Assembly (NCBI GenBank): GCA_039621445.1
Contig: CP154954.1
Span: 17,824,589 to 17,888,588, forward strand
Source of the DNA: Euglena gracilis
Taxonomy: Eukaryota
Length of the DNA stretch: 64,000 nt
Direction of reading: 5' to 3'
The position numbers and the translations under genes are program-made. Under the pieces are notes generated by a model that saw only the letters and a program-made list of their open reading frames with translations, was not told where the DNA came from and made no database searches. Below, one piece after another: positions 39,201 through 63,993 of the stretch (positions within the stretch are counted from its first letter, which is position 1; the number at the start of each line of letters is the position of its first letter).

Positions 39201-42200
39201 AAATGCCCCCTCGGTCCAGCTTGGCTTCCCTGGACTGTGAAAACATCTGCTCAGCCCCAGTGACGGAGGGGGCTGGAGCACCCAGCTGGGAGCCACTGAA
39301 CCACTGAAAAAAAGGCTGGCTGGCTGGCTGGAGCGCCCCCGACCCGCTTAAGAAATTCCCTGCTGCACAAACCCATTTCACGGCCTCTCCGCCAGGATTT
39401 GGGAGGTCAGTGAGAGACATCAAAAAAAAAATGCACCACAACGGAAAGCTCATACCGCTGATGGTGCCGTAGATGAGGGAATGGGGGCTCAGCTTGAGGG
39501 CGTAGGGGTTGGGAGCCTGGTCCTTCTCCTGGTCCGTCACCCGCATCACGAGGGACCCTGTGGGGACGGCCAAACATTTCTCTCGCCCCTCGCTGCCAGA
39601 GTGGGGGTGAGGTGAGACGGATGTTGGCGCAAAATGGGTCAGAGGTTTTTTAGGACCTGGGGGGGAGGGATCTGGACCTACCCACCCACCCCCTGGGGGG
39701 GCTCGGGGACTCACTTTGGGGGGGGGGTCAATTTTGGGGTCCGAAATCGAGGAAAACCCCAACTCCGGTGGGGCATCCACTCGGCCCAACCCCCCCCCCC
39801 CGGGGGTGGGGGGGCTCGACTGGGACCAACCCACCCCTCTCCCCCCCCGGTCACGAAACTTGAAAAACCTGGTTCGGGTGGCCGTATTTGCCTTGACTGA
39901 CCCAGACCACCCAAAACCATTTTTTGGGTTCCAAAAAAGCCCAACACATCATCCTTCAGCGCTTTGTGTCATTCTGCAACTGGGTTAGAAGTGATATTTC
40001 ACATGATTTTGGGGTCCAAAACTGCCAAGTTGCCAAAATATCAGCAATCTTTGCGCCAAAATTGTGGTTCTCCTTGAGTTTTAAGGGGGAGTGTCAGCGT
40101 CGGGGGGGGGGGGTCTAAAATTTGGGAGTGGGTCTTGGAGGGGCAAAAGATCTGGCAGAAAATTCCCACATCAGATTTCGAGGATGTTGAAAATGATCGC
40201 CCTCTGCACCTTGCCCATATCACCTGAAAAGTAGCCTTTGCCGCAACTGACATACCATACACCATGCACTTAGCATGGTTTCACTGAACTCTGGAGAAGA
40301 TGAGAAAAAACAAAAAATGGAGCCCTACGCTGAGGCCAATGCAGGGTTTGATATAAGGACAGGTGGGGGGGGTCCGAACCCCCCCCCTGCGGGCCAGGAG
40401 GGGGGGTGGGGGGGACACCCCCCCACCTAAACCATGTACGCCCTCCTTATATCAAACCCTGGGCCAATGCTCTCCCCCAGGCTTGGATGGGAATCTCGGG
40501 GGGGGGACCCCCCTACTACCTCCAGTTTTCGGTCACCGGGACTTCTCGCCGTGCAAAATTTCTATTGAGCCCCAAGGCGGTCCTAAAATACACCCCCGGT
40601 GCAAAGCACCAGAAGATTTTTTGCCCCCGCAGAGGGGGTGGAGGGGACCCCCCCTTCCAAAACTAGGGTGGGGGGGACCCCTCTGCCGCCTTACCCCCCT
40701 ACCACCTGCCTCATGTCTGCGGAGCTTCCCATACAACCCTGCCCTCCCCTCCAGGCTGTTTTTTACAAACCCCGGGGGGGGGGGTCCAGAGTGCCTCTGT
40801 GAGTGCCTACCTAGGCAGGCACTACCCCCCCCCGGGGGTCGGATTTCGGCCTGTGCCCAGGCACATTCCTTTGAAAATAGGCCATTTTTTGGCTCCTCGG
40901 CGCCTTTGGCGCCGGGGTTGTGCTAGGGCACGTTTGGCCGTGTGCCCTACCCCCCCGGGGGGGGGGGTTGGATCGGGAGTGCCTTGGAGTGCCTGCCCAG
41001 GCAGGCCCCCCCCCCCCCCGGGGTGGGGTCGGCACCCAACTAAAAAACAGCCTGCTCCCCTCCAAAAGCCCACCTTTGTGGAAGCAGTTCACGAACTCGC
41101 CCAGGTGGAACTGTCCCAGTGTGTTCAGCATCCGGTGCTCATCATCATTGGTGGCAGCAAGCTCTTTTCACAAGGTGGTTTCCCTTGTGGATCTGAGATG
41201 AATGAGAGGAACGCCCCATAGTATCATTTCTCAAAGACCCATTGAGGTCCCACAGGGGCTGGAAAAAAAGGTGTTGGACACCCCCCCCCCTATTGGACCC
41301 CAGGGGTCTTCTGATATAAATTTGGGGCCAGCACGGCAAAGATGGCTGGACCGAAAAGTTTCGGCGCAATGCCATCGAACATTCCTGGAAAAAAAAGCGG
41401 TCAAAATGGCAAAAAATGAAAATATTTGAGGACCTCAAACTTTCGGCTGAAAAAAACACAAAGCAGCTGGATTTGGACTTTTCCCGTTTTTCGGCTGGAC
41501 CTTGGGGGGGGGGGGGATCGGCACCCCGCCACAGAGGGGTCAGAACCCCCAACCTCGGAAAATATTCCATTCTGTGGCCTGTCATAAAGCCGGATCCCCC
41601 TCCCAAATGCATTTTGCCCGAGCTTCATGAGAAATGGCAGTTTTGACAAATTTTGTTTGACAAATTTTGTCATGAGTACTTTGGATCATTTAGGGGAAAA
41701 GTGGGTTTAAAATTGCCTGACCTTCTTTTAAGGGATTTTGAGATTTATGGCTGGCTGGGGCTTGGACCCCAAAAAGGCACATCCTTTTCCCAATGAAATT
41801 TACTCCTTCCAACTTACGTTCACCAATTTCGCCAAAAAAACAAAGCGGAACTAAAATTTAAGATGAAATGTCAAATTATTTTTTCCTTGGGATAGCTCTA
41901 AAAACGAAAAATCTTATCTAAAAACGAAAAAAAGAAATTTGGCATTCTTCGGTGAGAACAGGTCGACATCAGGTAAAAAAACTGCTTCTTGGCATCCTTG
42001 GACCATCACCCATCCACCCAAATCATCAAAAAATCTGGTTTTGGGCTTTTTAGTTTTGGACCTCGTTCAAGCCCCAGTCCGGCCCTTGGTCGGTCCTTTG
42101 GCTGAAAGGGGGGCGGTCCTTAAGAAAATAAAAAAAACTTTCCTGTCCCTTAAGGACCGCCCTGCAGGCATGGCAGTATTTTAGATCGCCAAATAAAGCC

Positions 42201-63013: not shown

Positions 63014-63993
63014 CAGGGTTTCCCACTGATTCGTACTTGGGGACTCCTTTGCCCATTCGTACTTATTCGTACTTATTCGTACTTATTCGTACCTATTCGT
63101 ACCTATTCGTACTTCAAAAAAGGGCCATGTATGGCAATGGGTGACCATTTGGTATGCTTCCTTGGGCACATCTTCAACGTTCTGAAACCGGGAAAAGCAA
63201 GGAAAACAGGTCATTCACTTGAGAAACTATCTAAGTGACGAACTCATGCTGGCGAAATTTGTGGGGAAAAAATCGCGCTGTGAAAAAAAATACAAAACAT
63301 TACAGGAAAAACACATTCCTTCTTTGCGACTGATGTTGTCCAGCATGCCATGCACGAACAAATACTCAAGATGAAAAAGCGGATTGTTCAATTGTGTGCA
63401 AAGCGTTCTTCGCAGTCACCATTGCAAAACATGCCAACGGCTGCTTGCCGAAGGTTAGATGACATGTGTTGGCGGTTTTTGACATCAATCAGTCCTGCCA
63501 ATCTGAAAGACCGTTCAGACCAGGGCAATTCAATTTTGTGAGCCACACTTTCTTCCCGCTCAAGGATTTCCTTATGCTCGCAATGTGTGTGGTATACACT
63601 CTGTCCACTGACGGTGCAAACTACTCCCCTCTTTCACACTGCCATATACAGATGTGTACTTTCGGATGAGTCCCCTGATGGATGGATGGTCTAACTTGTT
63701 GATGGGCAAACCTAAAAATCATTTTCGGAGGGAAAAGAGGACATGAGGCGTCCTGCAGCGTAAGATATGCATCACATACAGAGAAGTGTGAGGGGCCCTT
63801 CAACTCAGTGCAATGGTGTAGAAAATTGTACCTTTTTCTACTTGGCAATTCGTACTTATTCGTAACTGGGGAATTTTTCATTTGTACTTATTCGTACTTA
63901 TTCGTACTTATTCGTATTTTGGCACATCTCGGCAATTCGTACTTATTCGTACTTATTCGTACTTATTCGTGTACGAATCAGTGGGAAACCCTG
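63014..63993 (-). mobile_element. Non-autonomous hAT-like transposon with transposase C-terminal remnant
   Basis: Perfect 23-bp TIR cagggtttcccactgattcgtac, flanking duplication cccccac, ttcgtactta subterminal repeats; SERSFRLAGLIDVKNRQHMS...FCNGDCEERF on the minus strand at about 63390-63520. Confidence 0.85.

Follow-up and report, generated by a model that had tools for sequence, protein, structure and literature searches.

The right half of a 64,000-nucleotide stretch of Euglena gracilis DNA (assembly GCA_039621445.1, contig CP154954.1, positions 17,824,589 to 17,888,588 of the forward strand; hereafter the window) is occupied by a single minus-strand gene, the 3' part of a DDB1-like gene whose 5' part lies beyond base 64000. 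We consider it probable that the introns of this gene are packed with non-autonomous hAT elements and that its non-conventional introns began as insertions of hAT-type elements into exons; such CAGG...CCTG elements are likely the raw material of euglenid non-conventional introns. We observed the element families, their termini and 8-bp target-site duplications, transposase remnants, and four introns that are verified by RNA and share one layout. The analysis covers one gene in one 64-kb window.

Integration of a hAT element leaves an 8-bp target duplication, here around a CAGG...CCTG element, and the intron signal (3 nt, CAG ... CTG, 5 or 6 nt, then a purine) amounts to the element plus one copy of that duplication, because 3 + 5 = 8. 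If both copies of the duplication are cut at one and the same offset, the pre-insertion sequence returns, and the terminal signal is identical when read on either strand. Pairing of the inverted ends would draw both cut sites together in the RNA, so that a new insertion would be open to splicing at once. Exon insertion by a hAT-type element would thereby be the starting point of this gene's non-conventional introns, the older of which would have lost their duplications and family likeness since.

Non-conventional introns of the DDB1-like gene

All 25 exons of the gene in the window (62816 down to 33257) were placed by exact peptide matches to P0005 (eukprot:EG_transcript_838), a 1205-aa protein to which exon 56553-56705 is 100% identical and whose Pfam domains (PF23726, PF10433, and PF03178) are the beta-propeller set of DDB1/CPSF160-type proteins. 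The exons are joined by a 3158-nt RNA contig and by raw RNA reads. RNA joints were taken from contigs of runs X1 and X2 and from raw reads of run X21, with the DNA run X20 as a control; X21 is recorded as RNA, and the RNA status of X1 and X2 is only guessed ("RNA-type"). RNA joints and protein mapping together define 24 complete introns, 20 with GT-AG borders and 4 non-conventional. When we enumerated every cut position compatible with the protein, a GT-AG option existed at 20 of the 24 junctions and none at the same four. Of the best 15 of 818 joints, all between 40200 and 60199, 11 have GT..AG borders when read on the gene strand and the other 4 lack them; none of these 15 was seen in the DNA run X20.

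The trait by which euglenid non-conventional introns are recognized, removal from mRNA without GT/GC-AG borders, was thus found in four introns, which we call A to D (Table 1). All four carry C(A/T)GG at positions +4 to +7 and (C)CTG-like bases at -9 to -6, leaving 3 nt ahead of C(A/T)GG and 5 to 6 nt past the 3' motif, and in all four a purine opens the following exon. The register of 3 and 5 to 6 nt was fixed from introns that lack a border repeat. Exact CAG/CTG occurs in two of the four (C and D).

The layout of an element plus one duplication copy is seen directly in intron C. Its CAGGGGTC...GAACCCTG core has a perfect 8-nt repeat, CCCCCAGC, on each side (8/8). The joint 54294>54663 (ends CC..TG, "both" = 8) was found in X1, X2, and X21 (6 read starts) but not in X20, and it slides over exactly 8 nt, giving nine equivalent cuts, none of them GT-AG. 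Intron B (joint 45714>46649, "both" = 0, 17 read starts in X21) allows a single cut, which is not GT-AG; here the duplication is gone, and a cagggcgg copy (46166-46487) is nested inside. A preliminary description of this DNA, made from the sequence alone, had placed the intron at 45715-46648 around this copy, and the RNA joints agree to the base. Intron A (joint 41152>42380, 23 read starts in X21) has a degenerate CAG/CTG signal in an intact 3/5 register and contains a 5'-truncated cagggcgg copy (41933-42164). Intron D is defined by joint 56010>56553, with 5 read starts in X21.

A fifth intron, with a non-AG acceptor, is seen in its 3' part and runs off the right edge of the window; residue 531 is not encoded adjoining its end. 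The intron stops at CAGGGGCTTTTTCAGG, where repeat F10 terminates; F10 has two copies in the window (that at the fifth intron matches the second, 39640-39871, with blastn E 6e-11), and the intron is split by the element 63014-63993. This is the only intron border in the window that lies at the end of a multi-copy family, with half of the intron unseen. We predict that its other end, beyond 64000, reads GCCCTGGG followed by CAGG on the gene strand.

CAGG...CCTG elements and their hAT relatives

By blastn and inspection we defined 17 elements with both ends identifiable; they represent nine or more unrelated families or singletons. Their termini are exactly CAGG/CCTG in 30 of 34 cases, the exceptions being TAGG, CAAG, CACG, and one degenerate end; the inverted ends are 6 to 30 nt long. 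The preliminary description had every DNA-transposon family in the region ending in CAGG...CCTG, which holds in the main but is overstated as a rule for all, as two further inverted-end repeats (F9 and 51837-52267) lack CAGG. All six termini that it named are present, along with at least three more types, and the families are unrelated in sequence as it stated, since blastn at E<1e-4 finds nothing beyond short G/C runs between them. The cagggcgg family has six loci (41933, 46166, 48220, 49448, 57323, and 61849), caggctgt has two (40752 and 49054), and caggcttt (42832) and cagggatc (59142-60155) have one each; caggcagt is represented by 56855 and a degenerate relative (53334-53536), and cagggttt by 40342-40461 and by a separate, unlike element, 63014-63993. 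Further termini are caggcttgg (40478-40741), cagggggc/cagagg (62817- and 39640-39871), and the cores of three non-conventional introns.

Perfect 8-bp target-site duplications flank 7 of the 17 elements (starting at 40342, 40752, 42832, 46166, 48220, 49448, and 54303; sequences in Table 1), so that such duplications are real but more numerous than the five reported earlier. Two more elements match at 7/8 and one at 6/8; 10 of the 17 have no perfect duplication. A scan blind to the terminal bases (14-nt inverted ends with at least 12 matches, 60 to 6000 nt apart, and an 8-nt direct repeat with at most 1 mismatch) gave 11 matches in the whole window, 7 of them CAGG-led, while 12 dinucleotide-preserving shuffles gave 0 to 2 matches each, 7 in total and none CAGG-led; the pattern therefore exceeds chance. 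Three of the four non-CAGG matches are long inverted repeats of another repeat system, with similarity extending far past the supposed ends, and the fourth lies within a palindrome inside a cagggcgg copy. Matches at 4046, 4052, and 4900 were set aside with the CAGGACCTCACC repeat system. The CAGGACCTCACC inverted repeats (at 4.9, 22.8-23.1, 27.1, and 31.2-32.5 kb) were rejected as a CAGG family: the repeat runs at least 90 nt past CAGG in all copies, and CAGG is therefore internal there. One scan match, 18115-21110, has CAGG and a 7/8 flank; one or two chance matches are expected.

Two larger elements (59142-60155 and 63014-63993) tie these termini to hAT transposons. Both carry arrays of 10-nt subterminal repeats at both ends. 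The minus-strand open reading frame (ORF) of 59142-60155 retrieves three database proteins (P0002-P0004, 65-77% identity), which match the window by tblastn at 59274-59880 (E 2e-21 to 2e-26), where a broken DUF659-type transposase remnant lies in pieces interrupted by a stop and frame changes; the three proteins carry Pfam DUF659 (E 4e-9 to 2e-7), one of them above the curated cut-off. The second element has ATTCGTACTT subterminal arrays and a diverged remnant at 63492-63697, matched by P0004 residues 78-130 (tblastn E 6e-7). These matches bear out the earlier claim that two elements keep fragments of a hAT transposase. DUF659 is described as the RNase-H-like catalytic domain of hAT transposases (PMC3985635, text seen in part). 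In the window, then, the marks of hAT elements are the 8-bp duplication and the transposase catalytic domain, the latter as fragments only.

The terminal consensus of hAT elements is YARNG. CAGGG ends fit it, and CAGGC ends miss its fifth base; the families divide evenly between CAGGC and CAGGG starts. Judged by their 8-bp duplications, DUF659 remnants, and subterminal repeats, the two large elements (about 1 kb) are classified as internally deleted hAT elements and the small ones (120 to 500 nt) as hAT-type MITEs (miniature transposable elements with inverted repeats). An ORF at 63391-63633 (minus strand), considered as a hAT C-terminal motif, was dropped: it has no Pfam match and no homologue, and its best structural match is a ribosomal protein with E 1.5.

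The elements are repetitive: summed contig depth in the DNA run, which indicates repetitiveness only and is not a copy number, is 2e4 to 3e5 in element bins versus about 45 to 135 in unique bins. Copies of the abundant families are all intronic: GT-AG introns hold 12 of them and non-conventional introns the other 3 (41933, 46166, and 63014); those of the six named families are embedded in introns, and none is itself an intron. Within 39640-62276 the copies of cagggcgg (six loci), caggctgt (two), caggcagt (two), and F10 (two) share one orientation. Across these four families, 8 of 8 non-reference copies agree (chance 2^-8). MITE bins (40200-43534 and 48204-49537) have summed depths of 580 to 3670 in the RNA-type runs versus 369 and 279 for the mRNA contig, so MITE sequence from many loci is abundant in those assemblies; intron RNA, circles, and DNA carry-over are its possible sources.

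Table 1. Introns, CAGG...CCTG elements, and other repeats of the DDB1-like gene region. In the intron rows a slash marks the exon border; fractions are matching bases of the flanking 8-nt duplication.
Feature	Positions	Strand	Details
DDB1-like gene	33257..62816	-	25 exons, residues 532-1205 of 1205-aa protein
Intron A, non-conventional, 1227 nt	41153..42379	-	TCT-CTGGCTCTTTT ... AAAAGAGCTTG-CTGCC/A
Intron B, non-conventional, 934 nt	45715..46648	-	AAA-CAGGACAGCACC ... GGTGCTGTCGTG-TGGGG/G
Intron C, non-conventional, 368 nt	54295..54662	-	element 54303-54662 (CAGGGGTC...GAACCCTG) plus one duplication copy CCCCCAGC
Intron D, non-conventional, 542 nt	56011..56552	-	GGC-CAGGGGTTG ... CCCCTG-CCTCTC/A
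Fifth intron, 3' part, non-AG acceptor	62817..64000	-	exon border ...CCCCTG/GCC
Internally deleted hAT element, 1014 nt	59142..60155	-	19-nt inverted ends CAGGGATCCTCACATTTCC, 10-nt subterminal repeats
Internally deleted hAT element, 980 nt	63014..63993	-	inverted ends CAGGGTTTCCCACTGATTCGTAC, 23 nt perfect, ~30 in all
F10, second copy	39640..39871	+	CAGAGGTTTTTTAGG...GAAAAACCTG, inside GT-AG intron 39558-41073
MITE, 120 nt	40342..40461	+	CAGGGTTTGATATA inverted ends ~21 nt, duplication GGCCAATG 8/8
MITE, 264 nt	40478..40741	+	CAGGCTTGGATGGG / CAGGGTTGTATGGG, duplication 7/8
caggctgt MITE copy 1, 303 nt	40752..41054	+	duplication CTCCCCTC 8/8
caggcttt MITE, 403 nt	42832..43234	+	duplication AACCTGGC 8/8; sits in copy of non-CAGG repeat F9
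cagggcgg MITE copy, 322 nt	46166..46487	+	duplication CCTCCGGC 8/8; nested in intron B
cagggcgg copy	48220..48530	+	TAGG at one end, duplication CCGCAGAA 8/8
caggctgt copy 2	49054..49356	+	88% identity to copy 1, no duplication (1/8)
cagggcgg copy	49448..49762	+	CAAG at one end, duplication GGGATGCC 8/8
Degenerate cagggcgg-like element	55582..55938	+	CAGGGCGG...GACCGCCCGC; most of GT-AG intron 55543-55974
caggcagt element, 395 nt	56855..57249	+	no duplication; 70%-identical relative 53334-53536
cagggcgg-like copy	57323..57824	+	duplication 7/8; holds F9 at 57369-57592
cagggcgg copy, composite	61849..62276	+	flanks CCCCCAGC / CACCCGGC match 6/8
Non-CAGG repeat F9	57369-57592; 42814-42843 + 43235-43470		termini CCCCCCAAATAACCTGGC; second copy split by caggcttt MITE
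Non-CAGG repeat	51837-52267		GGGGCCCATAGTTG...; inverted ends 30-60 nt

Insertion sites and other features of the window

Three unrelated CAGG MITEs (40342, 40478, and 40752) lie within 713 nt (40342-41054), all in GT-AG intron 39558-41073. The right flank of the second (40478-40741) overlaps the duplication of the third (40752-41054), so that the third must have inserted no more than 2 nt from the end of an existing element. On their left side both caggctgt copies have the same 15 nt, CCCTGCCCTCCCCTC (40737-40751 and 49039-49053), and only copy 1 has a duplication; at copy 1 this flank is the end of the neighboring MITE. A target preference beside element ends and recombination between copies are both possible explanations. 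Several duplications end in GC or GGC (AACCTGGC, CCTCCGGC, and CACCCGGC), which hints at a target preference. The 8-mer CCCCCAGC flanks two unrelated insertions, intron C (54295-54302) and the cagggcgg composite (61841-61848). In the composite (61849-62276), the element end and 28 nt of flank are duplicated in inverted orientation; 62106-62299 of this copy is a palindrome with 94-nt arms, 95% complementary, and a 6-nt spacer. Neither CAGG ends nor a clear duplication was found for F9 or for 51837-52267.

At exon position 53076 (C for T) and behind 53094 (an extra C), all four runs, including the DNA run, differ from the window, whose reading frame breaks near 53076/53094 (residues 793/794); an error in the assembly or a difference between strains is the probable cause. 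A (GT/GC)n array (47532-47798), at which reads appear to be cut, and a (CA)n array (55391-55440) both lie within GT-AG introns.

Outside the gene, 5282-18555 (minus strand) is a Ty3/gypsy-type long terminal repeat (LTR) retrotransposon with 300-nt direct repeats (5282-5581 and 18256-18555, 97% identical) and ORFs for reverse transcriptase, RNase H, integrase core, and chromodomain; its G+C content is 0.61-0.67 versus about 0.5 elsewhere. Around it, 1100-5200 and 18500-33000 consist of repeat units of ~4.0-4.5 kb, three in tandem (85-96% alike), along with a diverged one at 2-5 kb. Their frames stay free of stops for 800-1000 codons, and one frame has a weak tyrosine-recombinase (Phage_integrase) match (E 2.6e-4, below cut-off). 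A DIRS- or Crypton-like element, interrupted by the LTR element, is a possible identity for this repeat.

Origin of the introns and its alternatives

The elements had been proposed as likely donors of non-conventional introns. That proposal holds up in the architecture that introns and elements share, in the perfect 8-nt repeat around intron C, and in the fifth intron ending at an F10 terminus; the accompanying expectation that intron sequences would cluster with the six named MITE families was not borne out (0 of 4 complete non-conventional introns, blastn within the window). Further observations count against a hAT origin of the introns. The four complete non-conventional introns have no blastn match elsewhere in the window except through cagggcgg copies, which are nested in two of them and are the source of these sole matches. 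Introns A, B, and D show no remaining duplication (2, 4, and 4 of 8 bases match), the signal of intron A is CTG/TTG and that of intron B is CAG/GTG rather than CAG/CTG, and the inverted end of intron D is only ~6 nt. Total depth in the DNA run is 38 at 54541 and 54551, within intron C, which is therefore not a member of a high-copy family. The abundant copies lie in introns, where they need no splicing of their own. As to the hAT assignment, three termini types are CAGGC, a poorer fit to YARNG; the DUF659 match of the window's own ORF scores 16.6 bits versus a curated cut-off of 34.7; and a Pfam search of eight ORFs from the two large elements, with E values up to 1 admitted, gave no hAT dimerization domain (PF05699), an absence that says little about an autonomous parent since the remnants are internally deleted.

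It is unlikely, in our judgment, that the resemblance is a coincidence in which the elements share CAGG through related hAT transposases and the introns arise otherwise, by break repair or conversion of conventional introns, with a similar short palindromic signal. Such an account would accommodate the absence of all four complete non-conventional introns from any MITE family and of duplications from three of them, and short CAG/CTG motifs abound, the window having 479 CAGG and 468 CCTG; in the available text of Milanowski et al. (PMC4770533), moreover, the eight-nucleotide direct repeats of a recently gained Euglena agilis gapC intron are read as a trace of break repair. Yet three independent features match, namely the terminal bases, the pairing inverted ends, and spacers that sum to exactly 8 in a fixed register; intron C unites all three with a perfect duplication, and the fifth intron ends at a family terminus. 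Still less probable is a survivorship filter, by which many DNA transposons insert and only those whose ends fit an existing non-conventional signal are tolerated in genes, so that CAGG is not the source of the signal. The whole region does lie within one gene, and the two non-CAGG repeats indicate that other ends occur, but almost all copies are intronic, where no filter is needed, and the transposase-bearing relatives also end in CAGG, which argues that this terminus belongs to the transposon lineage.

Least probable of all, we believe, is the reversed direction, in which the "MITEs" are mobile non-conventional introns that spread via RNA (by reverse splicing or reinsertion of circles) rather than by DNA cut-and-paste. 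Full-length circles have been reported for non-conventional introns after excision (PMC11282704 and PMC12501133, in the text available), all copies here lie in transcribed DNA, and each CAGG family keeps one orientation in this gene (the 8 of 8 copies in four families noted above). An orientation bias is also expected from selection, however, since a flipped cagggcgg copy would put AAUAAA-like runs into the pre-mRNA; in addition, an 8-bp duplication is the trace of a staggered cut by a DDE transposase, and both larger relatives, which have these termini too, contain remnants of a hAT transposase along with subterminal repeats.

A hAT origin of the introns can be taken one step further, to a reading that we put forward tentatively and regard as rather doubtful: euglenid non-conventional splicing would be an RNA-level undoing of hAT integration, such that, as soon as it has inserted, any intact CAGG...CCTG element that has its 8-nt duplication is removed from transcripts, whichever way it is oriented. 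If so, hAT MITEs could colonize exons freely, which would account for the dominance of such introns in euglenid genomes, and excision would extend to copies nested in introns, releasing circles as long as the element + 8. The transposon's own machinery might even have been the ancestor of the cutting activity. Read strictly on the transcribed strand, the published code would admit 11 of the 17 elements to splicing, and the nested copy 46166-46487 fits the code by sequence (AGG-CAGG..CCTG-GCCGG/A); introns A and B fail that code yet are spliced, so the code does not decide whether an element is spliceable. Low-depth RNA-type contigs (records 3 and 10) cross the left edge of this nested copy unbroken, a point against its excision that shows only the presence of unspliced RNA or DNA. 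RNA folds (z -2.1 for intron C and z -1.9 for the nested copy with its flanks) are dominated by internal hairpins and G/C runs and say little about pairing of the ends.

The comparisons that follow draw on the open-access text of the cited papers, in part. Our four introns resemble published euglenid non-conventional introns (Milanowski 2014, PMC3935182; Milanowski 2016, PMC4770533; Nomura 2025, PMC12501133) in their CAG-like bases at +4 to +6, CTG-like bases at -8 to -6, exon-start purine, and pairable ends. Knock-in mutagenesis by Nomura et al. (PMC12501133) set the required spacing at exactly 3 bp ahead of CAG and, past CTG, at 5 bp with one more tolerated, giving the code 5'-N3-CDG ... CH'G-N5-6 followed by a purine. 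A MITE-like origin has been suspected, as an inference from inverted ends, from 2013 to 2025 (PMC3935182, PMC6221363, PMC11282704, PMC12621601, and PMC12501133), the 2013 paper noting that no transposon was then known in euglenids; the origin is still called unclear or open (PMC6221363 and PMC12501133). In the text of the three intron papers, no transposon family, superfamily, or transposase is named, and direct repeats figure as a nuisance ("slidable introns") or are taken for break-repair traces, whereas at this locus families, 8-bp duplications, and hAT remnants stand beside the introns.

With hAT MITEs and deletion derivatives (Ac/Ds-like), the elements share 8-bp duplications, short CAG-led inverted ends, subterminal arrays, and DUF659 remnants; they differ in that the window holds neither an intact transposase nor a dimerization domain, and in that the termini double as a host RNA processing signal, for which we know of no case elsewhere. 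Introners of Micromonas, dinoflagellates, and Fritillaria (PMC11282704) are likewise DNA transposons that have duplications and inverted ends and turn into introns once inserted, part of the splice-site sequence coming from the duplication, but their removal is the work of the spliceosome, in some cases an adapted one, and the borders here are not GT-AG. The Introner-like trait of one family giving both intron and non-intron copies is suggested by a single case, F10, where the far intron end lies beyond the window. Merlin (PMC8101967), the one DNA transposon superfamily that we found previously described in E. gracilis, also makes 8-bp duplications, but it has 5'-GG inverted ends and an IS1595-type transposase. 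We rejected a Merlin identity for the elements described here: CAGG termini lie directly inside the duplication, the remnants match DUF659, and Pfam found no IS1595-type transposase in the ORFs of the two large elements.

We found no paper, in open-access text without supplements or figures, that links euglenid introns to hAT, to an 8-bp duplication, or to a concrete MITE family. The hAT identity and the 3 + 5 = 8 link therefore appear to be new, while a MITE origin itself is an already published hypothesis; our finding is concrete support for that hypothesis, to which it adds the assignment to a superfamily and the arithmetic of the spacers, and it may be known to genome consortia already. 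Non-conventional introns make up 71.8% of all introns in E. agilis, according to the text of PMC12501133. With hAT named as the donor superfamily, and the 3- and 5-nt spacers equated with the length of the hAT duplication, the question of their origin becomes directly testable. An origin from hAT-type insertions would explain why the spacers are fixed in length and free in sequence, and it would be an instance of RNA processing by the host being fitted to a single transposon superfamily.

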